Assembly: GCA_964592145.1 (NCBI GenBank)
Contig: CAZQBX010000002.1
Span: forward strand, 33,634 to 97,633
From: an uncultured Ignavibacteria bacterium
GTDB taxonomy: Bacteria; Zixibacteria; MSB-5A5; CAIYYT01
Reading direction: 5' to 3'
Length of the DNA: 64,000 nt
Both the position numbers and the translations under genes were made by a program. A model generated the notes under the pieces. It saw nothing but the letters and a program-made list of their open reading frames with translations. It was not told the origin of the DNA and did no database searches. Within the stretch, counting starts at the first letter, position 1, and each line of letters begins with the position of its first letter. This document shows positions 37,388-61,397 of the stretch, piece after piece.

Positions 37388-37487
37388 AATCGAGAGTGTT
37401 AGAGATCGTACAATGAGGGTGGCTGTTTTGGCCGTTGTCCATATGCAACTTGACCTTGGGAGTGTTGTTGCACAAGGCATTCGCCAG

Positions 37488-37503
37488 TGGCATCGGGATT
37501 GCT
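37488..37503 (+). promoter_or_regulatory. sigma-54 (-24/-12) promoter motif upstream of the histidine kinase / sigma-54 activator operon
   Basis: TGGCAT-cggga-TTGCT: GG at 37489-90 and GC at 37501-02 with exactly 10 nt between them, flanked by consensus T residues. It lies about 120 bp downstream of the palindrome. Confidence 0.55.
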
Positions 37504-37513
37504 GTATAGATTG

Positions 37514-38593
37514 ATGAACCTGGAAAGGAAGCGATTGATCAGTATTGACGACAAGCGGTATAAGATTGCCACGATTGCCGCGATAACGCTGTTAACAACA
37601 GCAATTCACTACGGCTTCGTGCTTGAACCGATCTTTGGTGACGCACACTGGATTCACGCTGTTCACAGCCGATTCTGCTACATCCCAATTGTAATTGCCG
37701 CTGCCTGGTTTGGCTTACGCGGCGGATTGTGGACCGCGACCGCGATCACAATAACGGTTTTACCGTACGTTTTTGGCTCACAATCAAGTGAGCACAATTT
37801 TGCGGGAGAGCTGGTTGAGATCGTCTTCTATTTTGCGTTGGCGCTGTTAATCGGCGCATTGGTCGACCGAGAATGGCGGGCGCGCCGGCGGCAGCAAGAG
37901 ACGCAACTTCAACTCGAACGCTCACAGAAGCTCTCATTAGTCGGACAGGTGGCAGCAGGCGTTGCCCACGAACTGAAAAATCCGTTGGCTTCCATCAAAG
38001 GCGCGGTTGAGATCATCAGCGACGAAAACACCACGGAGAATGAAAGAAGTGAGTTCAGCGAGATTCTGTTTCGTGAAATCAAAAGGATGGATGGTACAGT
38101 TACGGAGTTTCTGGAATTTGCCCGTCCTAAACCGACTCGAATGGAGCGGCTTGACCTTTCGCAATTAGTGCAATCAAGTCTTCGTCAGTTGGAGGCACAG
38201 GCAGCCAAAGAGTCGATCACGATCGCGGAGGAGCTTGAGTCGGGCGAAGTAATTGAAGGGGACCGCGAAAAACTCCATCAGCTGATTCTGAACATTGTTT
38301 TGAATGGAATCCAAGCTTCAAGAGCCGGTGGCACCATAAAAGTAGCGCTTCGCGGTCATGCTCACGATGTTGAACTTACGTTCCATGACAACGGCCAAGG
38401 CATAAGCGCCGCAGATCTTGATCGGATTTTTGAGCCCTTTTATACTACGAGAGCCTCGGGCAGCGGGCTGGGGCTGGCAATCGTGAAATCGATCATCGAT
38501 GCGCACGGCGGAACAATCGCCATTAAGAGTGAGGTCGATGCCGGAACGACGGTCCTGGTCCAATTACCGCGCCAAGTCGGGGTCCGGTCATGA
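37514..38593 (+). CDS. sensor histidine kinase (membrane N-terminus, HisKA, HATPase_c)
   Basis: H-box VAHELKNPLASIKGAVEII, N/G1/G2 boxes (LNIVLNGIQAS, HDNGQGI, GSGLGLAIV). The start is ambiguous: ATG at 37514, or TTG at 37535 after GGAAAGGAAG. The ORF-track GTG at 37487 overlaps the sigma-54 motif. Confidence 0.85.
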   Translation: MNLERKRLISIDDKRYKIATIAAITLLTTAIHYGFVLEPIFGDAHWIHAVHSRFCYIPIVIAAAWFGLRGGLWTATAITITVLPYVFGSQSSEHNFAGELVEIVFYFALALLIGALVDREWRARRRQQETQLQLERSQKLSLVGQVAAGVAHELKNPLASIKGAVEIISDENTTENERSEFSEILFREIKRMDGTVTEFLEFARPKPTRMERLDLSQLVQSSLRQLEAQAAKESITIAEELESGEVIEGDREKLHQLILNIVLNGIQASRAGGTIKVALRGHAHDVELTFHDNGQGISAADLDRIFEPFYTTRASGSGLGLAIVKSIIDAHGGTIAIKSEVDAGTTVLVQLPRQVGVRS

Positions 38594-39927
38594 TGCGAAT
38601 ACTCCTTGCCGATGACGATACTGCCTTGCGCCGGGTTCTGGAGTTCAAATTAAAAAAGAACGGATTTGACGTTGCGGCGGTTGCTGACGGTGAAGAAGCG
38701 CTCGCACGTGTGAAGGCCGGCTCCTTTGATCTGTTGCTCGCCGATATTCGGATGCCGAGACTGACCGGTATTGAACTCCTCGAGAAAGTCCGGACGCTGG
38801 AACCTTCACTCAAAGTGATTCTCATGACCGCCTACGCAACTGTGCCACAGGCAGTCGAAGCTGTCAAAATGGGCGCATTTGACTACTTGACCAAACCATT
38901 TGAAGACGAGCAGTTGTTGGTGACGATTGATCAAGCGCTGAAATTCAAGCGGCTTGAAGATGAGAATCAGCGACTGAAGGCGGAACTAAACTTGCGTTCC
39001 GGGCTGCACGAGATCATCGGCGATTCGGAACCCGTTCGAGAGCTGAAGGAGATAATCACGCAAGTCGCGCCAACAGATGCGACGGTGTTGATCACTGGCG
39101 AATCGGGAAGCGGAAAGGAACTTGTGGCGCGGGCAATTCATGCTTTGAGTTCGCGATTTGGAGCCCAGATGGTGGCGGTCAATTGTGCAGCATTGCCGCG
39201 CGACCTTCTGGAATCGGAGTTGTTTGGCCATGTGAAGGGTGCGTTCACCGGTGCAGCGAAGGATAAACGGGGAAAGTTCGAGATCGCCGGCGGTGGAACT
39301 TTGATGCTCGATGAAATCAGCGAGTTGGCATTTGACTTGCAGGCAAAACTCCTGCGAGTAATTCAAGAGCGAACAGTATCGCCGGTGGGAAGCGAGTCGA
39401 ATCGCGAAGTGGACGTCCGCATCATTGCCGCTACTAATGTCAACCTGAAGAAACGGGTCGCCGAGGGTAAATTCCGCGAGGACCTGTTCTACCGTCTGAA
39501 CGTCATCCCGATTCATGTGCCAAGCCTTCGCAAGCGATCTTCCGACATTCCGCTTCTGGTGAGCCATTTCCTCGGACGGCTTGCGCCACGGACCGAGGTC
39601 AGGCTGGACGCGGAGTTGATGGCAATTCTGATACGACACCGTTGGCCCGGCAATGTCCGCGAATTGGAGAACCTGATCGAGCGAATGGTGGTCCTGCGCC
39701 ACGGCGATACATTGACGAAAGCAGATTTACCGCACGACTTCTCCATCGAGTGGGAGAAGCCGGAGGTTCAGCAGGCGGTAACGTTCCATGAAGCGGAGAA
39801 GAGCCTGATTCTGAGCGCGCTTGAAAAAAGCAACGGAAACCGCACCAAAGCCGCGGAATTGCTGGCGATTCCGCGACATGTATTGCTGTATCGACTGAAG
39901 AAGTATGGTATTGTCACCGACGATTGA
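38590..39927 (+). CDS. sigma-54-dependent response regulator (NtrC/ZraR family)
   Basis: REC domain (DDD...K), AAA+ sigma-54 activation domain with GESGSGKE and GAFTGA, C-terminal Fis-type HTH; ATGA overlap with the kinase. Confidence 0.92.
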   Translation: MMRILLADDDTALRRVLEFKLKKNGFDVAAVADGEEALARVKAGSFDLLLADIRMPRLTGIELLEKVRTLEPSLKVILMTAYATVPQAVEAVKMGAFDYLTKPFEDEQLLVTIDQALKFKRLEDENQRLKAELNLRSGLHEIIGDSEPVRELKEIITQVAPTDATVLITGESGSGKELVARAIHALSSRFGAQMVAVNCAALPRDLLESELFGHVKGAFTGAAKDKRGKFEIAGGGTLMLDEISELAFDLQAKLLRVIQERTVSPVGSESNREVDVRIIAATNVNLKKRVAEGKFREDLFYRLNVIPIHVPSLRKRSSDIPLLVSHFLGRLAPRTEVRLDAELMAILIRHRWPGNVRELENLIERMVVLRHGDTLTKADLPHDFSIEWEKPEVQQAVTFHEAEKSLILSALEKSNGNRTKAAELLAIPRHVLLYRLKKYGIVTDD

Positions 39928-50995: not shown

Positions 50996-51301
50996 TTATG
51001 TCCTGTGCGGTTTGAAGGCAAACTCTCGGATGCTCATCGACTCGGGTACCGGATATACGCCGGCGCCAGCGCAAAGTGGGCAAGGGCTCTTGTCAGACTG
51101 GCGAATCTCGATCATGCCGGATCCTCTACAAGCGTAACAGTCCTTGCCGGAAGTATCCTGTCCCTTGCCAAAGCAGTACATGCAGACGTGGGCGTGGTTC
51201 GGCGTTAGGCAGCGGTTGTCGACCCAGCCGCGCCCGAGGCATTCCGGGCAGGTTTTTGGCGGCCCTTCACCGGATCGCGGCCGATGCTTCTCGGTTGACA
51301 T
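50996..51301 (-). CDS. small DnaJ-type zinc-finger protein (4x CxxCxGxG)
   Basis: CPECLGRG, CMYCFGKG, CYACRGSG, CPLCAGAG; the last gene of the hydrogenase operon. The start is uncertain (ATG at 51301 or the ORF-track 51328). Confidence 0.6.
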   Translation of the reverse strand: MSTEKHRPRSGEGPPKTCPECLGRGWVDNRCLTPNHAHVCMYCFGKGQDTSGKDCYACRGSGMIEIRQSDKSPCPLCAGAGVYPVPESMSIREFAFKPHRT

Positions 51302-51782
51302 AGATTTTCTCTCCTGTATGCAATGCAAGCCATTGATCGATGCTCGCCAACGCCGGTTCGATAGCAGCCATTACCTTGGCGGTCATGGTCTCGCTCAGCG
51401 TAGTCACATCAGCGACCTCAACGGCAAGCACATCAATATGCTTCGGCATTTGGTATCCAAGCTGACTCCCCAACTTTAACGCCGTCGGGAGACTCATCTG
51501 GTGGCTGGAGGTGAGATTTCGCGATGGTGTCAGTGTCCCCATTGGGAAGAAGTGTAGGGTTCCAGGCGGAACGCCGCCGGTCACGATACTGTCAATGAGT
51601 AGGACTTTGCTTCTTCTGTTGAGCAAATCCAGCAGGCCGAATCCGGCAACCGGAGCGAATATTACCTCGACCCGGTCACACTCGTGCCGTCTTGTGTGCA
51701 GTATCCCGGCAATTGTCGGTCCGAACGAATCGTCTGACAGAACTTCGTTTCCAAGACAAAGAATCAAGAATGGCTTCAACAT
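51267..51782 (-). CDS. [NiFe]-hydrogenase maturation endopeptidase (HyaD/HycI/FrhD family)
   Basis: LGNEVLSDDSFGP and the DxxH region; overlaps the mvhA stop. Confidence 0.85.
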   Translation of the reverse strand: MLKPFLILCLGNEVLSDDSFGPTIAGILHTRRHECDRVEVIFAPVAGFGLLDLLNRRSKVLLIDSIVTGGVPPGTLHFFPMGTLTPSRNLTSSHQMSLPTALKLGSQLGYQMPKHIDVLAVEVADVTTLSETMTAKVMAAIEPALASIDQWLALHTGEKIYVNREASAAIR

Positions 51783-53260
51783 TGCCTTTTGACGACCTCG
51801 ATTACTTCGCCACTCTCCGCAGAATGAACAACAATCTCCAGAGGCATCTCACCCGGAAGCGAGTGCGTCGCGCAACCAAAACATGGATCGTAAGCGCGAA
51901 AAGCCATCTCAATCCGATTGAGTACGCCGTCGGTAATGGTCGTACCCTTCTTGATCAACCCCTCGGCGGCGCGCTTGATTGACATCGTAATCGGCGCATT
52001 GTTGTTGGTCGTACCGACAATGAGATTTGCTTCGGTGACGATTCCATTCTGATCGGTCTTGTAGTGGTGCGTCAAGGTACCGCGCGGCGCTTCGACGGTG
52101 CCGACGCCCTCGCCAACGATGCCTGTCGGAGGTTCGAGGATGTGATCGGAAGTTATCTCGTCATCCTTGGCTTGCTCCAAAGTGGCTTCGCAGGCAAACA
52201 TCAACTCGACTACGCGCGCCCAGTGTGTTGCCAACGTAGAGTTGACCGGTATCTTCCCAGTGCGATCTCCAGTCAACGTTTCAAAGTAGCGTTCGTACTC
52301 GGCGTGTGCGAGCGGTGTCGCCATACCATCGGCGACATTGAGTCGAGCCAGCGGCGTTGCTTTGTAAACACCAGAGTCCATTCCATCGACGAACCCCTTC
52401 CAACCGACTTTCTTCAAGTAAGGGTACTTGAGATAAGAATAGGGCTCGACGCGCTCTTCAACATACTGGAGATAGTCCTTCGGCTCGTATTTGGCATGTT
52501 CCGATCCGTCGGGTGCTGTTACACGTACTTTGCCGTCATAGAAGGTGACGTGATTGTTGTCATCAACCAGTCCCATATTGTAGGTTTGGTGCGCATAGGA
52601 ATCAGAAAGAATCATTTCGAGATAAGTCTTGTTCGCAAGAACGATATCATTCAAAACCTGAATCGTGAACTTGGCGAACTCGACCATTTCTTCACCGATC
52701 TTGATGATTTCCTGTTGCTCTTCTTTGGTGACGCGTTTGCTCATTCCGCCTGGTAAGGCGGTGACCGGGTGCACTTTCTTACCGCCGATGATCTCGATCA
52801 CACGCTGACCGCGGGCCCGCTGGGCAATGACCTTCTTGCCGACATCCAGACCTACCTTGGCGATTACACCGAGGATATTGCGCTCAGCTTTCGGTGCGTC
52901 GGGACCACAGACGAAGTCCGGCCCGCCCAGAGCATAAAAGTGAGTTGTGTGATCACCTGCATAAAACGCGTTGTAGACTAATTCGCGCAATTTGCGCGCC
53001 GCCGACGGAATAGTAACGCCGTATACGGCATCAGCGGCCTTTGCCGACGCCATGTGATGTGCGTCAGGGCAGACACCGCAGATTCGGGTGGTAATGCGCG
53101 CCAATTCTTCGACCGGCCGCCCCTGACAGAACTTCTCGAAACCGCGAAGTTCCGGAACCTGGAAGTAACAGTTGGCCAACTCACCATCGTCGTTGATGAA
53201 CAGGTGAATCTTGCCGTGCCCCTCAAGGCGCGTGATCGGATCGATGACAATGCTCTTCAT
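51776..53260 (-). CDS. mvhA: [NiFe]-hydrogenase large subunit, Mvh/group-3 type
   Basis: N-terminal RICGVC and C-terminal DPCFGCATH Ni-Fe ligands with a short post-His tail for protease cleavage. Confidence 0.93.
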   Translation of the reverse strand: MKSIVIDPITRLEGHGKIHLFINDDGELANCYFQVPELRGFEKFCQGRPVEELARITTRICGVCPDAHHMASAKAADAVYGVTIPSAARKLRELVYNAFYAGDHTTHFYALGGPDFVCGPDAPKAERNILGVIAKVGLDVGKKVIAQRARGQRVIEIIGGKKVHPVTALPGGMSKRVTKEEQQEIIKIGEEMVEFAKFTIQVLNDIVLANKTYLEMILSDSYAHQTYNMGLVDDNNHVTFYDGKVRVTAPDGSEHAKYEPKDYLQYVEERVEPYSYLKYPYLKKVGWKGFVDGMDSGVYKATPLARLNVADGMATPLAHAEYERYFETLTGDRTGKIPVNSTLATHWARVVELMFACEATLEQAKDDEITSDHILEPPTGIVGEGVGTVEAPRGTLTHHYKTDQNGIVTEANLIVGTTNNNAPITMSIKRAAEGLIKKGTTITDGVLNRIEMAFRAYDPCFGCATHSLPGEMPLEIVVHSAESGEVIEVVKRQC

Positions 53261-54228
53261 ACTTGCACCCTCCGCAGTAGCGACCCGGCCATGCTGAAGC
53301 GATAGAATGTTCCCAGCGGATCGGGAATGGTGTTGATGATCTGTTCGATCTCTTCCGGATCAGTAGAATCGATCACGCTGGCCAGAGCCGAGACCATCTT
53401 GGCACCCTGGTCATTGATGTTTGACGGGAGCCCATAGCAGCCGCGACACGGCATTCCCGCTTTGACGCATTTGGCTCCACAGCCGGAACGAGTTGCCGGT
53501 CCAAGACAGACGATGCCTTGCTCCATCAGACATAGATTCGGATCAGTGACCTTGGCAAACGGGCGTGTGAAGGATTTGATCTTCTTGATATTGCGTTCGC
53601 GCGGGCACTCGTCACAACAGCTTTTGTCGGTTGCGCCGAGAACTGTCCCCTTGGGAGGCAGTGGCTTGTTGTTCTGGAGAATGTCGATTACCGCCATGAC
53701 CGCGTTGACTATTTGATCGGACTGGGGCGGACAGCCGGGAATGTAGTAGTCAACCTCAACTACCTGATCGAGTGATCGAACTGTATTCCAGAACTTCGGA
53801 ATGGTAATGGTCCCTTCGGAAACCTGAACTTCCGGCTGCGGTTCGACCTTGCCACCATTGGCGAGCGAAGGTGATTTGTGATAGACGTAATCGAGGATTA
53901 TCTCTTTGTTGAAGAAGTTCGCCAACGCCGGAATGCACCCTTCGCCGGCACAACTGCCGAAGGCCACCAGGACCACCGATTTTTGGCGCAGCAGTTCGGC
54001 GAGTTCGTAGTTTTCACTAGTCCGAATTGCGCCGTTGAAGAGCGTTAGCGTGATTGACTTGTCTTCCATTGCGCGGACATCGTCGTACTTGGTATCCATC
54101 GCGCAGGGCCAGAAAACGACATCAAAGAAATTCGCCACATCGAGGATCTTCTCTTCGATATCGAGAATGGATATGTCGCAGCCGCCGCATGAGGAGGCCC
54201 AGTATATGGCAAGTTTAGGTTTAGACAT
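53257..54228 (-). CDS. mvhG: [NiFe]-hydrogenase small subunit, MvhG type
   Basis: [23 protein letters not shown] proximal cluster motif. The start ATG at 54228 sits 7 nt after GGAGGTG; the ORF-track start at 54249 is not needed. Confidence 0.9.
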
Positions 54229-54670
54229 GTTGATGCACCTCCTCGGCATTGGGGTCGAAGTTGTAGTCGTGCAATTTCAATGGTCCCAAGGCGCGAATCT
54301 GTTCCGTGAACTCGGTGATGACCTCCTGGAACCGGCCGCCTTCCGAAGCGGAAACCCATTCGAGACGCATCCGGTTGCGAGCGATGCCTAATTCCTGAAG
54401 TAACAGCTGCGTCAGGGGCATTCGACGCATGCACTTGTAGTTTCCTTCGATGTAGTGACAATCGCCGGGATGACAGCCGCAAATCAACACACCGTCGGCG
54501 CCGCGGCGGAAGGCATCGAGGATAAATGCCGGATCGACGCGGCCGGAGCACATCACGCGAATGCTGGTCACATTGGGCGGATAGTGCATGCGTGCAGTGC
54601 CGGCGAGATCGGCGCCGGTATAGCTGCACCAGTTGCAGAGAAAGCCGACAATTTTCGGTTCAAAGCTCAT
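54221..54670 (-). CDS. mvhD: methyl-viologen-reducing hydrogenase delta subunit MvhD (FlpD domain)
   Basis: CNWCSY...CSGRV...[10 protein letters not shown] cysteine pattern of MvhD. Confidence 0.9.
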
Positions 54671-56427
54671 GACAATATCCCCTCAATCTGCGCATAGATT
54701 TGTTCATCGGTGAAGTGGCGTCCCTTGATCGCTCCTGAAGGACAAGCCGCGACACAGGTACCGCAGGCCTTGCACAGCGCGGAGTTGACGTGGCTGATCT
54801 TCTTTTCGAGATCAAAATCGATCGCGTGATATGGACACATATCATTACAGATTTTGCAGCCGGAACAAAGCTCGTCCTGGACCTCCGCGTATGTGGCGTC
54901 CATCAGGACTTCGCCCTGGCACAATAGCCTCATGACCTGTGCGGCAGCTGCCGAGCCTTGCGCCACAGAGTCGGGAATATCCTTTGCACCCTGGCAGACA
55001 CCGGCGAGGAAGATTCCCTCGGTTGAAGTTGATACCGGCGCCAGCTTGGGATGGGATTCAATAAACCAGCCATCGGCCCCGACCGAGATGTTGAAACGCC
55101 GGGCAATGTCCTTGGCATCGGCCCGTGCCTCAAGGGCGGTACACAGTACGATCATGTCAACTGGAACTTCGCGGTGCTTGCCGATCATCGTGTCTTCGCA
55201 GCGAACGATAAGTGCGCCTTCGGCTTTCTGTGATTGGCTGGCCGGGACAACTTCGGCACCTTTGCCGCGGATGACATTGCCGCCTTCATCGAGAATTCTC
55301 TGGTAGAATTCCTCGTAACCTTTTCCGAATGAGCGCATGTCGATATAGAACTGATAAACATCAGCCTTGGTCTTCTCCATGATCAAGTGCGAGAACTTGA
55401 GGGCATACATGCAGCAAACGCGGCTGCAGTACTTGTGGTGATTTTCGTCGCGACTGCCGATGCAGTGGATGATTGCTATCCGGCGCGGTTCTTCCCCATT
55501 TTCCAGACAGATCTTTCCACCGGTCGGACCGGCGGCATTGTTCATCTTCTCAAACTCAATGGAGGATACGACGTTGGGATAACGGCCATAACCGTACTGC
55601 TTCATCGGCGTTGGGTCGAAATCGTCAAAGCCGGTTGCCAGGACGACCGCGCCAACTTCGACTTCCTCGAAATCTGCGCGATCACCGTAGTCGATGCAGT
55701 CCTTGGGGCATACCTTCTCGCAGATCATACACCCGCCGGTCTTGTAGTGGATGCAGTTTTCGCGTACGATATAAGGTACGTTCGGGACTGCTTGTCGAAA
55801 TGGCAGTGTGATAGCGGCGTTGGGACCCAGGTTGAGTTCGCGGTGATTGATGACCCGCTCCTCAATGTCCTGCATCTTGATATGCCCGGTCGGGCAGTAT
55901 TTGGCACAGGCACCGCAGAGGATGCAAGCCTCGGAGTCCAGATCGAACGGCGTCGATACATCTCGATCCTGGCCACGATTGATAAAGGTCAGCGCGTGAG
56001 CACCGACAACTTCATCGCAGATGCGAACGCAGAGTCCGCAGAGAATGCAGGTGTAGGTTCCATGTCCCCAGCGTGGTTCCTTGACCCCGAACTTCGCCGC
56101 ATAGTGCTCCAGCAACGGAACCGGCGCGCAGTTGGCCATCAACATTTCCAGATTTGTGCGACGCGCATTAACTACGCGCGGCGTTTCGGTGAAGATTTCC
56201 AGACCGTCCCAGGCGGGATAATTGCAGGCCGTTACGATCTTGCTCCAACCTTTGTTGTTGCGAGCCTCCACGACACAGATTCGGCAGGCAGCATACGGAC
56301 TCATGAACGGGTAGTAGCAAAGAGTCGGAATCTCGATTCCCAACGACTGTGCGGCTCCCAGAATGTATGAGCCTTCTTCAACCTCGATTGCCTGGCCATC
56401 GATCTTAATCTTAACTGTTGCCATCAT
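54667..56427 (-). CDS. fusion: HoxU/NuoG-N-terminal-like [2Fe-2S]/[4Fe-4S] ferredoxin module + C-terminal half of HdrA
   Basis: Residues 1 to about 230 carry 2Fe-2S ([15 protein letters not shown]), a His-type 4Fe-4S ([16 protein letters not shown]) and two 4Fe-4S motifs ([21 protein letters not shown]). The rest matches the HdrA TrxR-like second half ([32 protein letters not shown]) plus the C-terminal 2x[4Fe-4S] ([24 protein letters not shown]). Confidence 0.8.
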
Positions 56428-56433
56428 TGTCTC

Positions 56434-58449
56434 CTAGGCCACACTCGCCGGCTGTTTTGCGGTTTCCTTGGGCTGCCAAAGTTCGCGCGCCCGCTGTTGG
56501 ATCTTGTCACCTTCGCCGCGCTTGACACGCTTGATTGAGTTGTAACGACAAATCTGGTAACAGGCGCCACATTGGATGCACTTGTCCTGAATTATCATAT
56601 GCAGGCGTTTGGGTTCGCCGACGATAGCGTTGGTCGGACAGGGTTTGACGCAGGCATGGCAACCTGTGCAGGTATTGTCGATGGCGTGCGCCACCAGTTC
56701 CTTGCAGACACCGGCCGGACAGCGTTTATCGCGAACGTGTGCGATGTATTCCTGGCGGAAATAACGGATTGTGGACAGCACCGGATTCGGTGCTGAACCA
56801 CCGAGTTGGCATAAACTGGTGTCGATGATGACCTGCGACAGTTCCTCGAGGTGTTCGATGTCCTCCATCGTGCCGTTGCCTTCGCAGATCTTGTTGAGAA
56901 TGTTCAGCATCACGACAATGCCTTCACGGCATGGCACGCATTTGCCGCACGATTCCTCCTGCAGGAACTTCAGAAAGTACCGTGCGACATCGACCATGCA
57001 GGAATCTTCATCCATTACGATCATGCCGCCTGAGCCCATCATCGAACCGGCTTTAGTGAGTTCATCGAAGTCGACCGGTAAGTCGAGCAGGCTGATCGGT
57101 TCATCCTCCTCGCGAATGTCGCCGTGCGCAACCATACTGGCGTGTACGGACGATTCGGAAGTTTCGACAATGAGAGTACCGCCTGATGGACCACCGGTTT
57201 GCACAGCTTTGAATCGTTTCTTATTAGGGACGCCGCCGCCGATGTCGTAAAGAATCTCGCGCAGGGTAATTCCCATTGGAACCTCGACCAGACCGGTGTT
57301 GTTGATCTTGCCCGTTAATGCAAATACCTTGGTGCCTTTGGAATTGGGGGTTCCGATCGAGGCGAAATATTCGGCGCCCTTCTCAATGATGACCGGGACG
57401 TTCGCCCAAGTTTCGACATTATTCAGATTTGAGGGTTTCTCCCAGAGTCCGGCTTCCACTGTGTGAATATACTTCGCCCGCGGTTCACCGACTTTCCCTT
57501 CAAGCGATGCCATTAAGGCGGTCGATTCACCGCAGACAAATGCGCCACCACCCCGGGATATTTCGATCTCGAAGTTGAACCCGGTCCCAAGAATATTCTG
57601 CCCGATCAGACCGTACTCACGCGCCTGATTCATCGCAATGGTCAGATTCTTAACCGCCAGGGGATATTCGTTGCGGACATAGACGAATCCGTCGTTACTA
57701 CCGATCGCAAACGCGCCGATGACCATCCCCTCAATGACCATGTGGGGATTGCCTTCAAGCAGGGAGCGATCCATGAATGCTCCGGGGTCGCCTTCGTCGG
57801 CATTGCAGATAACGTATTTGGGTTGGCCTTTGGCATTGCGGCAGGACTCCCACTTCCGGCCGGCTGGATACCCGCCGCCGCCACGACCACGCAATCCGGA
57901 TTTTTTGACTTCATCTATGATCTGCGTCGGAGCCATTTGGGTTAGCGCCTTCACCATTGCCTGGTATCCACCAAGGAGAATGTAGTCGTTGATCGAGGTC
58001 GGATCCATGTATCCGTTCCTGCCAAATATCAAACGCATCTGCTTCTTATAGAATGGTATGTCCTTTTCAAGTTTGATGACTTGCTGCGATTGTGGATCGC
58101 GATAGAGCAGTTTATTCACCAGATGGCCGCCCTTGATAGTCTGTTCCCAGATCAGCTTGGCATCCGCGGGGCGGACTTTCTGATAGAAGATGCCCTGTGG
58201 TTGGACGACAACCAACGGTCCGCGTTCGCAGAATCCGTGACAACCTGTTGTCTTGATCTCAACCTCGTTCTCCAGATGGTCATTGACGATTTCTTCTCGG
58301 AAAACCTTTGTGACGGCTTCACAACCACACGCCAGGCATCCAGTGCCGGCGCAGATGGTCAGGACCGTTTTGTTCGCATTGCGGTTGCTCTTGATCTTTT
58401 CGCGCAACTTTGTCAAGTCGCCAGGCGATTGAAGCTTTACGTCTTGCAT
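56434..58449 (-). CDS. NuoF-like NADH-binding FMN flavoprotein with N-terminal [2Fe-2S] and C-terminal 2x[4Fe-4S] (HydB/HndC/HoxF type)
   Basis: GRGGGGYPAGRKWE FMN/NADH site, SLBB domain, N-terminal thioredoxin-like Cys cluster (CAGTGCLACGCE), C-terminal CTGCHACVKPCP / CIQCGACYQICR. Confidence 0.92.
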   Translation of the reverse strand: MQDVKLQSPGDLTKLREKIKSNRNANKTVLTICAGTGCLACGCEAVTKVFREEIVNDHLENEVEIKTTGCHGFCERGPLVVVQPQGIFYQKVRPADAKLIWEQTIKGGHLVNKLLYRDPQSQQVIKLEKDIPFYKKQMRLIFGRNGYMDPTSINDYILLGGYQAMVKALTQMAPTQIIDEVKKSGLRGRGGGGYPAGRKWESCRNAKGQPKYVICNADEGDPGAFMDRSLLEGNPHMVIEGMVIGAFAIGSNDGFVYVRNEYPLAVKNLTIAMNQAREYGLIGQNILGTGFNFEIEISRGGGAFVCGESTALMASLEGKVGEPRAKYIHTVEAGLWEKPSNLNNVETWANVPVIIEKGAEYFASIGTPNSKGTKVFALTGKINNTGLVEVPMGITLREILYDIGGGVPNKKRFKAVQTGGPSGGTLIVETSESSVHASMVAHGDIREEDEPISLLDLPVDFDELTKAGSMMGSGGMIVMDEDSCMVDVARYFLKFLQEESCGKCVPCREGIVVMLNILNKICEGNGTMEDIEHLEELSQVIIDTSLCQLGGSAPNPVLSTIRYFRQEYIAHVRDKRCPAGVCKELVAHAIDNTCTGCHACVKPCPTNAIVGEPKRLHMIIQDKCIQCGACYQICRYNSIKRVKRGEGDKIQQRARELWQPKETAKQPASVA

Positions 58450-58970
58450 TACTTGGCCTCCCCTGACTTATGAACTCGTCCGGCGCGAACGTCGTTGAGC
58501 ATCGTTTCGGTCTTCGAGACGGTCATGTTACCAAAGTAAACTTCGTTGGCGGTCACGAGTGGTCCGAGGGCGCAGGCACCGAGACAGTTCACGGTCTCAA
58601 GGCTGATTTCGCCGTCGGGAGTGGTTTCTCCCGATTTGATCTTCAGGTCACGTTCCAGCTTGTCAACGATTACGGTCGCTTGCCGAACATGACAGGCGGT
58701 GCCGGTACAAACACAGATGTGGTTTTTACCTTTTGGCTTGAGGCTGAAGGTGCGATAGAAGGTTGCAACCCCATAAATCTGTGCAAGCGGCAATTTCATC
58801 GTTTTCGAGACAGCGCGCATCGCTGACTCCGGCAGATAACGATAGTGCTTTTGAATGTCCTGAAGGATCATGATGAGTGCCGACGCCTTGGCGCCATACT
58901 CGGCCACAATTTGATCGATCGCTTCCTGGACGTCATACTCTTCTTGCGGAGCCGCAGGTAATGTGGTCAT
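58449..58970 (-). CDS. NuoE-like thioredoxin-fold [2Fe-2S] subunit (HydC/HoxE/HndA type)
   Basis: CVCTGTACHV...CLGACALGP motif. ATG at 58970 follows GGAGGTGA by 8 nt; the ORF-track start at 59063 is a spurious extension. Confidence 0.88.
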   Translation of the reverse strand: MTTLPAAPQEEYDVQEAIDQIVAEYGAKASALIMILQDIQKHYRYLPESAMRAVSKTMKLPLAQIYGVATFYRTFSLKPKGKNHICVCTGTACHVRQATVIVDKLERDLKIKSGETTPDGEISLETVNCLGACALGPLVTANEVYFGNMTVSKTETMLNDVRAGRVHKSGEAK

Positions 58971-59932
58971 GATTGCTTCACCTCCGCAGGCAGTAGGTCT
59001 TTTTCGGGCATTGGTTGAGCCCCTGTGAGAACCGTCAAGTCGTGCTTTGGCCCCATTCGCCATTTGTCTTGAACGTCGAGTAGGCGCCCTTCACGATAGA
59101 CCCGGTCGCCCAGGATCATGCGGCGACGAGTTGGTGTCGGCACGCTGGGGCAGGCTTCGAAGCAGGCACCGCAGCTGTTGCATTTTGTGGTGTCCACATA
59201 CCGGGGTTTCTTCTTAAGTTTGACCGTAAAATTCCCCAAATACCCGGTCACCCCTTCGACTTCAGTCCAAGTCATTAGGCGAATGTTCGGGTGTTTTCCG
59301 ACTGCAACCATTTTCGGAGTCAGAATACAAGCGGCGCAGTCGAGCGTTGGAAACGTCTTATCAAACTGCGCCATATGACCGCCGATCGTGGTTTCCTTTT
59401 CGACGAGGATAACTTTGAAGCCGGCATCCGCAATTTGTAGGGCTGCTTCAATCCCGGCTATTCCGCCGCCGACGATGAGTACCTGCTGTTTGATCGGGAC
59501 GCGGCGCATGTCGAGCGGTTCATGAAGCCTGACTCTGGCAACCGCCGCCCGCACCAGTGAGATCGCCTTGGCCGTGGCAGCTTTAGGATCGAGAGTTACC
59601 CAGCTTACCTGTTCGCGAATGTTCGCCATTTCAAAGAGGTAGCGATTGAGTTGAGCGCGTTCGCAGGCGTTACGAAATGTCGGTTCATGCATCAGCGGAC
59701 TGCAGGCCGCGACCACGACGCGATTGAGTTTGAGTTCGCGGATGTCTTTCTGAATCAGTTCTTGTCCCGGTTCCGAGCACATGAACTTGTATTGCCTGGC
59801 GACAACCACGTTGGGAAGCGTGCTGGCGATCTCGGCGACCTTACCCACATCAACCATTTTGGCGATGTTGTTTCCGCAGTGGCAGACATAGACGCCGACG
59901 CGGATTTCCGAGCCGTTTTGCGACTGGTTCAT
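58967..59932 (-). CDS. N-terminal half of heterodisulfide reductase subunit A (HdrA): Cys-cluster domain + first part of FAD domain + one ferredoxin motif
   Basis: IRVGVYVCHCGNNIA...CSEPGQ...VVVAACSP, FAD dinucleotide fold VLIVGGGIAGIEAAL...LDCAACILTP, then CNSCGACFEACP. It ends without the second half of the TrxR-like fold. Confidence 0.8.
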   Translation of the reverse strand: MNQSQNGSEIRVGVYVCHCGNNIAKMVDVGKVAEIASTLPNVVVARQYKFMCSEPGQELIQKDIRELKLNRVVVAACSPLMHEPTFRNACERAQLNRYLFEMANIREQVSWVTLDPKAATAKAISLVRAAVARVRLHEPLDMRRVPIKQQVLIVGGGIAGIEAALQIADAGFKVILVEKETTIGGHMAQFDKTFPTLDCAACILTPKMVAVGKHPNIRLMTWTEVEGVTGYLGNFTVKLKKKPRYVDTTKCNSCGACFEACPSVPTPTRRRMILGDRVYREGRLLDVQDKWRMGPKHDLTVLTGAQPMPEKDLLPAEVKQS

Positions 59933-60813
59933 ACGGCCACCACTCCTTTCAACGCTATTAGCTTGCTTGGTTCGATAAGCAACTTATCGAGTCCGAGTTC
60001 CGCAGGCGAAAGTCCCAGTGCGATTCCGACCAAGTGCGTGAAGTATATGACCGGTATGTTGAAATCCGTCCTATACTGCGCGTTGACTTTGCCCTGAAAG
60101 CCCTCAAGATTCACGTGGCAGAGGGGGCAGGCAGTGGCGATGACGTCACCGCCGTTCTCCGCGGCTGCTTGCAGAAGTTCATGACAGAGTTTCAGGGCAA
60201 TCTGCTCGTCGGTGGTCATTAGCATTCCACCGCAGCAGCGTACTTTGGGCGGGTAGTGTACCGACTCGGCGCCGAGGGCACGGATCAGGGTGTCCATTGT
60301 CTGGGGATCATCTTTGTCGTCGAAGTAACCGACCGGCCGAACGATCTGACAACCGTAGTATGGGGCGACTTTAAGGCCGGTGAGCGGCCGCGTGACTTTT
60401 GTCTTGAGCACTTCAATTCCAACGTCATTGACGATGATATCAAGCGGATGTCGCACGTTGACTGGTTTGGTATAGGACATCCCCGCCGCAGCGAGAGCCT
60501 CGTTGATCTTCTTGCCTTCCTTGGGATCCCAGGCAATGTGTCGATTGGTTTTGCGAAGTATCGTGTAGCAGCTACTGCAGGGTGCGCAGATTTCGAGACC
60601 CATTTCCTGCGCCAGCGCCAGATTACGCGCACTGATCGAATAGCCGACGATTTTCTTGGCGGACATGTACATTGTCGCGCCACAGCAGTTCCAGTCCTCG
60701 ATTTCGCGAAGCCCAATTCCAAGCGATTTGAAGACAGCTCGCGTCGACTTGTCATATGGGCTGGCCGTATGCTCGAGACTACAACCAGGGTAGTAAGCAT
60801 ATTCTTGCATCAC
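59929..60813 (-). CDS. hdrB: heterodisulfide reductase subunit B (two CCG domains)
   Basis: YYPGCS / WNCCG and PYYGCQ / RCCGG motifs. Confidence 0.92.
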   Translation of the reverse strand: MMQEYAYYPGCSLEHTASPYDKSTRAVFKSLGIGLREIEDWNCCGATMYMSAKKIVGYSISARNLALAQEMGLEICAPCSSCYTILRKTNRHIAWDPKEGKKINEALAAAGMSYTKPVNVRHPLDIIVNDVGIEVLKTKVTRPLTGLKVAPYYGCQIVRPVGYFDDKDDPQTMDTLIRALGAESVHYPPKVRCCGGMLMTTDEQIALKLCHELLQAAAENGGDVIATACPLCHVNLEGFQGKVNAQYRTDFNIPVIYFTHLVGIALGLSPAELGLDKLLIEPSKLIALKGVVAV

Positions 60814-61397
60814 TGTTCTCCAAACTCGTTAGCTTTTTTGATGATTGCCTGGATTTGATTGACGCGCCTGATGCGTTTCGGAAGCAGCCCCATTCTGCCG
60901 CGTCGAATCATTGCAATCCCATAACCTGATGTCGTGAATAGTTTCACAATGTGTGAGCGCATAAAGTACTTGATGCCGAGGCCGAGTTCATAATTGCGTC
61001 CGTACTTATAGACGTTGTTCATAAATGTCGAGGAGAGGCTATGAACTGGGAAGTTGGCGGGATAGATCTTACGATGCATCGCGATTCGCTTCAGTGCATA
61101 CATTGTGTCTGTGACCTTGATTCCGGAAGGACATCTGACGGTACAAGCATAGCATGATGCGCAAATCCAGATCGCCTTGCTGCGCAGGATGTCCTCCAAG
61201 CGGCCGGCTCTGAACATTGCGATGGTTTGGCGTGGCGTGATGTCCATAAACTGCGATACCGGGCAGGTTCCCGTGCAGGTTCCGCACTGAAGACACTTCT
61301 TGATCTTGTGTCCGTCAGGAAATGAGTCGATTTGTTCCCAAAAAGCGGCGTGCAGTTCAGCCTCTGTGGGCGAAGTGGTCTTGATTGCTTCAGTCAT
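60810..61397 (-). CDS. hdrC: heterodisulfide reductase subunit C (2x[4Fe-4S])
   Basis: CLQCGTCTGTCP and CASCYACTVRCP. Confidence 0.9.
   Translation of the reverse strand: MTEAIKTTSPTEAELHAAFWEQIDSFPDGHKIKKCLQCGTCTGTCPVSQFMDITPRQTIAMFRAGRLEDILRSKAIWICASCYACTVRCPSGIKVTDTMYALKRIAMHRKIYPANFPVHSLSSTFMNNVYKYGRNYELGLGIKYFMRSHIVKLFTTSGYGIAMIRRGRMGLLPKRIRRVNQIQAIIKKANEFGEQ

Follow-up and report, generated by a model that had tools for sequence, protein, structure and literature searches.

A bacterial HdrA interrupted by Bfu-type bifurcation genes in an hdr-mvh operon of uncultured phyla

Flavin-based electron bifurcation allows strict anaerobes to make low-potential ferredoxin without ATP. The present work concerns an operon in a 64,000-nt stretch of DNA from an uncultured Ignavibacteria bacterium (contig CAZQBX010000002.1; the whole stretch is referred to as the window, and all coordinates are window positions), in which the gene for HdrA, the flavoprotein of heterodisulfide reductase, is divided into two open reading frames (ORFs) lying on either side of nuoE and nuoF. 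The operon comprises ten closely packed ORFs on the minus strand (51267-61397), which were identified by Pfam, NCBIfam and PDB sequence searches, and most of its adjacent genes overlap by 1-7 nt. It is a new architectural variant of two known bifurcating systems and is widespread in uncultured phyla.

In the solved Hdr complexes, electrons from the donor enter through the clusters of the HdrA terminal domains and the [2Fe-2S] cluster of MvhD. From the flavin adenine dinucleotide (FAD), the high-potential electron leaves through cluster HA4 to HdrC and HdrB, and the low-potential electron passes over the shuttle cluster HA3 to HA5/HA6, where ferredoxin, MvhB or FmdF docks. The complex MvhADG-HdrABC of hydrogenotrophic methanogens (5ODC, 8RVU) has the same subunits and cofactor motifs as the operon described here, the HdrA parts of the two being ~55-65% identical, and methanogens likewise hard-wire the HA5/HA6 domain to a partner iron-sulfur (FeS) protein, MvhB or FmdF. 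Their HdrA, however, is one polypeptide, whereas here it is two; the partner of HA6 in methanogens is a polyferredoxin leading toward CO2 reduction, whereas here BfuA would take that place, linked covalently and connecting to a second bifurcating core that has an NAD(H) site. The methanogen disulfide, CoM-S-S-CoB, is not expected in the bacterial hosts of the operon.

The only characterised enzyme that joins both modules is the class II benzoyl-CoA reductase (BCRII), Bam[(BC)2DEFGHI]2, which also unites an HdrA-type and a HydBC/Bfu-type module in series. The coexistence of both bifurcation modules in one complex was called unreported before in a cryo-EM preprint on this enzyme, and their serial coupling a new principle (10.64898/2026.04.10.717634). 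In BCRII the donor is BamGHI: electrons pass from BamI, a BfuA, to BamE at its C-terminal ferredoxin domain and to the MvhD-like BamF, which form the mid-potential input port, and the tungsten site is reached from BamE through its inserted ferredoxin domain (10.64898/2026.04.10.717634). The arrangement of our operon appears to use the opposite port, with the hydrogenase on the input side and Bfu on the inserted ferredoxin domain. Furthermore, BamE is an unsplit, duplicated HdrA whose gene is not interrupted, as hdrA is here.

An insertion at this position has its closest precedent in HdrA9-11 of ANME-1, in which an NfnB-like and potentially bifurcating flavin module is inserted at the same place in the inserted ferredoxin domain. 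That insert is a single 500-aa domain within one polypeptide, of the NfnB type (FAD, NADPH) and archaeal, whereas the insert here consists of three genes, divides the protein and is of the Bfu type (flavin mononucleotide (FMN), NADH and ferredoxin), and the hosts are bacteria. On the Bfu side, BfuB and BfuC find full-length matches (E 1e-225 to 1e-231) in the type-2 Bfu enzymes WorABCSL of Acetomicrobium mobile (9MQX) and NiFe-HydABCSL (7T2R). WorA and the BfuA of the operon both have clusters A1, A2 and A4 and no A3, with a donor module plugging in at A4; the C-terminus of WorA, a zinc finger and a polyferredoxin-recruiting helix, is replaced here by 60% of HdrA, and the third "substrate" would, unlike that of the Wor and NiFe-Hyd enzymes, be the low-potential branch of another bifurcating flavoprotein. 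The account of the Bfu family describes many donor modules, among them no Mvh-Hdr-Bfu type, with Bam-Bfu as the sole HdrA-containing member (Schut et al. 2022). Full-text literature searches brought up no account of an mvh-hdr operon in which HdrA is split and nuoEF/Bfu genes are present, although an earlier mention is possible. FlxABCD-HdrABC of sulfate reducers is a further bacterial case, in which an MvhD-like adaptor links HdrABC with NAD(H) and ferredoxin; the Flx proteins, however, are not NuoEF/Bfu homologues of the operon type, HdrA is unsplit there and no hydrogenase takes part. Flx genes are absent here, the point that our comparison with that system covered.

The divided HdrA

A previous reading of this locus from its sequence only had proposed that HdrA is divided into two ORFs around nuoE and nuoF, and both the positions and the main content that it gave for them proved right. 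Residues 8-263 of the upstream ORF (58967-59932, 321 aa) match residues 10-266 of HdrA in PDB 8rvu/5odc with E 1e-101 to 1e-103, 8rvu being the Methanothermobacter HdrA. As that reading had described, the aligned part contains the 4-Cys N-terminal domain, the GGGIAG FAD-binding segment (GGGxAG) and one CxxCxxCxxxCP motif only; it also holds TLDCAAC, and the alignment ends just past the single motif, CNSCGACFEACP. The HdrA-homologous part of this N-half thus comprises residues 1-264 (59141-59932; 8rvu alignment E 7e-103, HdrA2 profile positions 1-256) and is followed by a C-terminal tail of residues 265-321, which occupies 58967-59140 together with the stop codon. The remainder of HdrA is found in a fusion protein of 586 aa (54667-56427), whose C-terminal part, residues 194-586 (54667-55848), matches HdrA from ~245-260 to ~653, its C-terminus, with E 1e-107 to 1e-110 (8rvv, 5odc and 9sfi). 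This part brings the linker and the second Cys motif of the inserted domain, the remaining TrxR-like fold and the C-terminal 2x[4Fe-4S] domain, so that the proposed continuation of the fusion into the second half of HdrA and its C-terminal ferredoxin domain is borne out.

The two pieces were also placed on NCBIfam NF040770, the HdrA2 profile, which represents an HdrA::MvhD fusion in 777 positions. The N-half accounts for positions 1-256, residues 194-584 of the fusion for 259-640, and mvhD for 647-774; this tiling without overlap shows that the two ORFs are complementary and contiguous, which the sequence-only reading had named as what a divided HdrA should give. The N-half makes up the N-terminal 40% of HdrA and the fusion holds the other 60%. 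With 385 and 434 bits against a cut-off of 1100, neither piece passes as a single-polypeptide HdrA. Pfam flavoprotein profiles match the N-half over their first 40-80 positions only and do not match the fusion at all; a complete TrxR-like fold is present in neither ORF, and the full HdrA FAD fold (GxGxxG, HA4, lysine) exists only as the sum of the two. HdrA is therefore genuinely split, and the locus does not encode two complete flavoproteins, the outcome that had been named as speaking against a split. The position of the break was misjudged in that reading, which had put it at the boundary of the two FAD-domain segments: it lies ~20 residues into the inserted ferredoxin domain, directly after its first Cys motif (motif 1) and before its second (motif 2).

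The cofactor ligands are distributed over both chains. C17, C19, C52 and C77 of the N-half, together with C199 and C202 of TLDCxxC, whose Cys HdrA provides to its partner protomer, are aligned to HdrA and invariant in 65 homologues, as are the motif 1 residues C251, C254, C257 and C261. In the fusion, motif 2 (C225, C233, C236, C240) and the C-terminal ferredoxin motifs (C521-C531, C552-C562) are invariant, and the HA4 motif (CxGSRD...YCSxxCC) is represented by C322, C334, C338 and C339. The equally invariant K344 of the fusion corresponds by alignment to K409 of 5odc, which we take to be the lysine at FAD N5. Lys280 of BamE is the counterpart FAD-N5 lysine of that enzyme (10.64898/2026.04.10.717634).

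The 57-aa tail of the N-half, with the consensus RRMxLGxxV(Y/F)REGRxLDVxD...GPxHDLTxLTGAQPMPE, is kept in loci L001-L023 and in the 65 database homologues, and is missing where HdrA-N is fused directly to NuoE. A search of the tail against the PDB gave nothing below E 0.05, the best hits being generic CxxCxxCxxxCP matches to HdrC. Each piece was also modelled alone by AlphaFold2 (AF2) from 65-sequence alignments, of which the per-residue confidence is considered only. The BfuA domain of the fusion (pLDDT 85-95) and the HdrA N-terminal domain were predicted confidently, and the tail was given a beta-hairpin at 269-283 with low to moderate confidence. Confidence fell below 50 in the fusion at 190-218 (linker), 252-267 (after motif 2) and 445-512 (a strand of the FAD pocket), and in the N-half at 183-195 (FAD loop) and 251-266 (motif 1); these dips may be taken as weakly consistent with a domain divided between two chains. 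The FAD pocket and one ferredoxin domain appear to be built from two chains, and such a natural split flavoprotein may help to explain how the inserted ferredoxin domain tolerates insertions, a point of comparison being the NfnB insert of ANME-1.

The inserted Bfu genes and their distribution

The N-terminal domain of the fusion (residues 1-193, 55849-56427) is assigned by its alignment to WorA/BfuA 9mqx_A, which runs in one piece over residues 5-198. WorA is the BfuA of a type-2 Bfu enzyme and has A1 ([2Fe-2S]), A2 and A4, without the His-ligated A3. An alignment to HydA 8a6t_A breaks at the segment of the His-ligated cluster, where fusion residues 100-126, which lie between the [2Fe-2S] domain and the first CxxCxxCxxxC motif, stand for HydA 95-144 and contain one Cys (C100, not invariant) and no conserved His. 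The twelve Cys of A1 (C37, C48, C51, C68) and of A2/A4 (C127-C137, C168-C178) are invariant in 13 loci and 65 database homologues; C100, H108 and H122 are not. Of the FeS module that the sequence-only reading had seen here, the [2Fe-2S] and 2x[4Fe-4S] sites stand, and the His-ligated [4Fe-4S] cluster is, judged from these residues, absent. By its motifs the domain is a type-2 BfuA with A1, A2 and A4, A3 and A5 being absent.

NuoF (BfuB, HydB-type; 56434-58449, 671 aa) aligns over its full length to HydB/BfuB (7t2r_B, E 2e-231; also 9mqx_B and 8a6t_B) with all cluster Cys motifs aligned. It carries an N-terminal [2Fe-2S] domain, the FMN/NADH site, an N3-type [4Fe-4S] cluster, the RCPxxxC motif with the B2-site Cys and a C-terminal 2x[4Fe-4S] domain, the corresponding Pfam set being 2Fe-2S_thioredx, Complex1_51K, SLBB, NADH_4Fe-4S and two copies of Fer4. 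With the C-terminal domain for B3/B4, the N-terminal [2Fe-2S] for B5, and B1, the set of BfuB sites is complete. The extra domains and sites are those that distinguish the bifurcating BfuB from the non-bifurcating NuoF/HoxF (Schut et al. 2022). NuoE (BfuC, HydC-type; 58449-58970) is a thioredoxin-like [2Fe-2S] subunit (Pfam 2Fe-2S_thioredx, E 2e-50), the best PDB matches of which are the HydC/BfuC chains 7t2r_C, 7p5h_C, 8a6t_C and 9mqx_C. By sequence, the inserted genes form a complete BfuC-BfuB-BfuA(N-terminal domain) set of the bifurcating type, so that the earlier view of NuoEF as a plain NADH:FMN module has to give way to that of a full HydBC/BfuBC bifurcating core.

Two other assignments were considered and rejected. 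A complex I N-module (NuoEFG) was ruled out by the HydB-type extra domains of NuoF and by the NuoG-like part, which is only 193 aa long and lacks N5; other nuo genes were not found within the window. A HoxEFU diaphorase was ruled out by the model scores (HoxU 128 bits against a cut-off of 333, HoxE 148 against 224) and by the NuoF extensions. NuoF also has an insertion of ~27 aa, TLIVETSESSVHASMVAHGDIREEDEPIS, at residues ~428-455 between the SLBB region and the four-helix [4Fe-4S] domain, which is absent from all solved HydB/BfuB chains. Protein lengths suggest that it is kept in the Mvh-linked family (668-679 aa) and not in the variants linked to electron-transferring flavoprotein (ETF; 617-620 aa).

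The gene order hdrC-hdrB-hdrA(N)-bfuC-bfuB-bfuA::hdrA(C)-mvhD-mvhG-mvhA-hycI is conserved. The fusion protein is represented at full length by at least 120 database clusters (66-97% identity, all 579-604 aa) and the N-half by at least 120 clusters of 314-329 aa in which the tail is covered too. In a scan of genomes the ten genes recurred in this order at 16 loci (61-98% identity of the fusion), which are labelled Zixibacteria/GN15 or "Ignavibacteria", and they did so on three more contigs, which come from Eisenbacteria, Thermoanaerobaculaceae and a 4.3-Mb genome. The architecture ranges over Zixibacteria, Eisenbacteria, KSB1 and Acidobacteriota of soils and sediments. The pieces appear in databases under the names "FAD-dependent oxidoreductase", "4Fe-4S dicluster domain-containing protein" and "heterodisulfide reductase subunit A", so that both Hdr and NuoEF are probably counted wrongly when metabolism is reconstructed from these genomes. 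Among the nearest loci (97-98% protein identity), both "uncultured Ignavibacteria" and "candidate division Zixibacteria" occur as labels; those family members that are named in databases speak for Zixibacteria, and the Ignavibacteria labels of these metagenome-assembled genomes (MAGs) may therefore be wrong.

An unsplit HdrA of 663 aa occurs within hdrCBA-mvhDGA, without nuoEF, in two Desulfobacterota-like MAGs (L015 and L016). It is 58-63% identical and has in common with the split form five unusual extra residues in motif 2 of its inserted domain, and this arrangement probably resembles the ancestral state. At the loci L018, L019, L021 and L022 of Bacteroidales/Chlorobiota MAGs, mvhDGA is preceded by two HdrA-like genes in a row. 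Tblastn alignments with the second of these stop before the inserted ferredoxin domain and resume after it; the domain may be missing there, in what would be another rearrangement at the inserted-domain hot spot.

More distant relatives were found in a search of 1.8 billion 50%-identity representatives, where 13 of the best 150 matches were colinear BfuA::HdrA-C proteins (33-51% identity) with identical Cys motifs and, in none of them, the His-cluster segment. In three of the four variant contexts that were fully examined, HdrA-N is fused to NuoE in a protein of 423-424 aa, a short linker replacing the tail; these relatives are 40-43% identical. In one variant (L031) BfuA::HdrA-C is further fused to MvhD (706 aa). 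As fusions thus occur on both sides of the inserted module, there is strong sequence evidence that HdrA-N, BfuC, BfuB and BfuA::HdrA-C belong to one complex. The distant variants (L029 4858-9785, L031 1361-9928, L033 1221-7788) are accompanied by etfAB, acyl-CoA dehydrogenase and CCG-domain genes, and by no hydrogenase. ETF has recently been found to be the high-potential acceptor of the HdrBC-like BamD, and by analogy these variants may be NADH/ferredoxin/ETF-linked systems. The fusions further suggest that the cassette of an HdrA interrupted by Bfu is a portable unit. A NuoF-like gene with a GltD/NfnB-like pyridine-nucleotide domain (Fer4_20 and Pyr_redox_2) was seen at L030 96-1685 and L033 2911-6156; the domain seems to replace the C-terminal ferredoxin domains of NuoF, which suggests a third nucleotide site.

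Proposed electron flow and alternatives

We lean towards the view that the genes at 50996-61397, ten or eleven in number, specify a single soluble Mvh-Hdr-Bfu complex that acts as a serial device. An ancestral bacterial hdrCBA-mvhDGA operon would have gained bfuC, bfuB and the N-terminal domain of bfuA within hdrA, between the two Cys motifs of the inserted domain. Together the two pieces would give an ordinary HdrA with a single FAD pocket, and the inserted ferredoxin domain with HA5/HA6 would be assembled in trans, motif 1 coming from the N-half and motif 2 from the fusion. MvhAG would oxidise H2, and the electrons would reach the bifurcating FAD through MvhD and the terminal domains of HdrA. 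The high-potential electron would then pass from HA4 over HdrC to HdrB and a putative disulfide, while the low-potential electron, instead of leaving on free ferredoxin, would go from HA3 to HA5/HA6 and, by a contact between HA6 and A4, along A4-A2-A1 of BfuA to BfuBC, whose core would share the electrons between NAD+ and ferredoxin. The net reaction that we infer, with the stoichiometry it implies, is 4 H2 + 2 RSSR' + NAD+ + Fd(ox) -> 2 RSH + 2 R'SH + NADH + Fd(red, 2 e-), where Fd is ferredoxin.

The direction of this flow is argued from the architecture. In type-2 Bfu enzymes a partner cluster passes electrons to A4 and from there over A2 and A1 to BfuBC, which reduces NAD+ and ferredoxin, and low-potential donors into BfuA have precedent in Wor-, Codh- and Por-Bfu. 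In the operon, the input port of HdrA (the C-terminal ferredoxin domain and MvhD) is intact and followed by the hydrogenase genes, HdrBC is intact, and BfuA is attached covalently to the motif 2 half of the inserted domain. With the input port intact and the junction at the low-potential exit, electrons more likely leave HdrA toward the FMN of NuoF than enter its FAD from NuoF, as far as can be read from these positions and by analogy. The sequence-only reading had proposed that electrons from the NuoF FMN are wired through the FeS chain into the HdrA FAD; the covalent joining of the NuoG-like chain to the C-part of HdrA argues for the direct electronic link that it postulated, but the entry point and the direction were probably wrong.

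The operon would then show both modules joined at the output port of HdrA and tied to H2 metabolism. More tentatively, it may represent a second and topologically different serial coupling of two bifurcation devices, in which the HdrA FAD comes first and the Bfu FMN follows, the reverse of BCRII, so that the low-potential electrons of HdrA would be bifurcated again within a portable cassette. If true, NADH and ferredoxin could be made from H2 at lower H2 pressures than by the canonical Mvh-Hdr, ferredoxin potentials could fall below those of either module alone, and the interrupted-HdrA cassette would be present in many uncultured phyla, plugged into hydrogenase or into ETF/acyl-CoA dehydrogenase systems. 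The first of these follows from a rough estimate: with half of the low-potential electrons going to NAD+, the acceptors have a higher mean potential, and the overall reaction could by this estimate stay exergonic at H2 pressures too low for the canonical complex, in which disulfide and ferredoxin are the only acceptors.

Several points weigh against this serial scheme. All of the evidence comes from MAGs; the neighbouring genes in the window give no pointer to the disulfide substrate of HdrB; and the direction of flow cannot be read from sequence, Bfu being the donor in the analogous BCRII. In addition, the spacing between the second BfuA Cys motif of the fusion and motif 2 equals that between motif 1 and motif 2 of unsplit HdrA, and a pairing in cis within the fusion, which would leave the motif of the N-half in another role, is therefore still conceivable. 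As a main model this cis pairing, with the second BfuA motif doubling as motif 1 of HdrA, was rejected, since the flanks of that motif fit WorA better than HdrA; it is also disfavoured by the N-half, where an invariant motif of its own immediately follows the TrxR strand, and by the HdrA2 profile alignment, which begins only at fusion residue 194.

One possible alternative is that the same complex runs in reverse, Bfu confurcating NADH and reduced ferredoxin into HdrA through HA6/HA5 at ~-400 mV, as BamGHI does in BCRII, and HdrA delivering the electrons to HdrBC for disulfide reduction and/or to the hydrogenase for H2 evolution, in the manner of a fermentative redox valve. The use of a Bfu module as donor in BCRII, the reversibility of Bfu enzymes and group 3c hydrogenases, and the host lineages, which are thought to be mostly anaerobic heterotrophs, all count for such a flow. 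We nevertheless regard it as rather improbable, since Bfu enters BCRII at the C-terminal ferredoxin domain and the MvhD-like adaptor and not at the inserted domain, and the input port is retained here for MvhD and the hydrogenase; feeding the low-potential branch would moreover make thermodynamic sense only as confurcation with thiol oxidation, for which no obvious use can be seen. Still less probable is an HdrA that does not bifurcate and serves as scaffold or wire from the [NiFe] hydrogenase to BfuBC, giving an H2:NAD+/ferredoxin oxidoreductase similar to NiFe-Bfu, with HdrBC as an accessory, regulatory or thiol-sensing branch. A NiFe-Bfu hydrogenase does exist (7t2r), its B subunit is the closest solved relative of NuoF, and Bfu modules are known to take many donor modules. 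All cofactor motifs of HdrA are, however, invariant, as is the lysine equivalent to K409; neither CCG domain of HdrB has been lost, and hdrCB are never missing and are coupled in translation, a costly machinery that would be hard to explain unless the high-potential branch is in use.

The remaining explanations deny that the pieces form one flavoprotein. The locus might encode separate enzymes, i.e. a BfuABC with an HdrA-derived domain on BfuA beside a truncated HdrA remnant, and gene neighbourhood by itself is indeed no proof of assembly. We consider this very unlikely in view of the missing complete FAD fold in either ORF, the exact complementarity of the pieces, the strong purifying selection on both of them, half-motifs included, and the relatives in which HdrA-N is fused with the product of the first inserted gene, NuoE. 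An artefact of assembly or sequencing, or a pseudogene, in which hdrA is merely frameshifted or misjoined, was an objection foreseen in the sequence-only reading, and frameshift-like breaks do occur in various genes of L002, L006, L011, L017 and L023. These breaks are scattered, hit other genes too and fit long-read errors, whereas assemblies made independently for several phyla show one and the same split architecture, in which the ORFs are intact, the tail is conserved and stop and start codons overlap, so that we give this explanation next to no weight.

Other operon genes and the surrounding window

Upstream of the N-half lie hdrC (60810-61397), a 2x[4Fe-4S] heterodisulfide reductase subunit (Pfam Fer4_8/Fer4_17; NCBIfam CoB_CoM_SS_C E 3e-22, below its curated cut-off), and hdrB (59929-60813), the start of which overlaps the 3' end of hdrC by 4 nt. 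HdrB has two CCG domains, for the non-cubane clusters and the disulfide reduction site, and is matched by Pfam CCG in two stretches (E 2e-27) and by NCBIfam CoB_CoM_SS_B (E 2e-63, below cut-off). The mechanical nuoE ORF (58449-59063) begins 93 nt upstream, within hdrA-N, of the likely and conserved ATG start at 58970. This ATG shares the sequence ATGA with the TGA stop of hdrA-N, and automatic annotation may give overlapping genes at this point.

Downstream of the fusion gene, whose stop it overlaps by 4 nt, starts mvhD (54221-54670), the [2Fe-2S] adaptor between hydrogenase and HdrA (Pfam FlpD, E 8e-56; HdrA2 profile 647-774). It is followed by mvhG (53257-54249; Pfam Oxidored_q6, NCBIfam VhuG E 1e-61, below cut-off), the small subunit of a group 3c-type [NiFe] hydrogenase, and by mvhA (51776-53260; Pfam NiFeSe_Hases, NCBIfam VhuA E 3e-120, below cut-off), its large subunit, whose translation shows the N- and C-terminal Ni-binding CxxC motifs RICGVCPDAHH and DPCFGCATH. 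Ni-binding motifs, small subunit, FlpD-type MvhD and adjacency to hdrABC all agree with group 3c (MvhADG), an assignment made from Pfam and NCBIfam in which the best models, VhuA, VhuG and VhuD, each stay below their cut-offs. The last of the ten genes (51267-51782; Pfam HycI, E 3e-10) encodes a hycI-type hydrogenase maturation endopeptidase and has the same position in all related loci.

Directly downstream, and overlapping the 3' end of hycI, a small ORF (50996-51328, also on the minus strand) contains four CxxCxGxG repeats of the DnaJ-type zinc finger. It is kept at this place in nine loci (L001, L003, L005, L012-L014, L023, L027 and L028), with identities down to 33-36% in Thermoanaerobaculaceae and a 4.3-Mb genome, and the homologue in L027 gives a faint DnaJ_CXXCXGXG match. 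Its conservation suggests that it may be an eleventh gene of the operon, perhaps an assembly factor.

The neighbours of the operon in the window are housekeeping genes (mtaB, folE, aspS, icd, lptFG) and an RND efflux system. A scan of the operon for promoters and terminators gave counts at or below those expected from shuffled sequence. In the window folE lies upstream of hdrC, and a histidine kinase/NtrC-like pair is found 20 kb away (37487-39927); in Eisenbacteria (L026 1-434) and Thermoanaerobaculaceae (L027 346-2766) a sigma-54-dependent two-component regulator is located directly upstream of hdrC.

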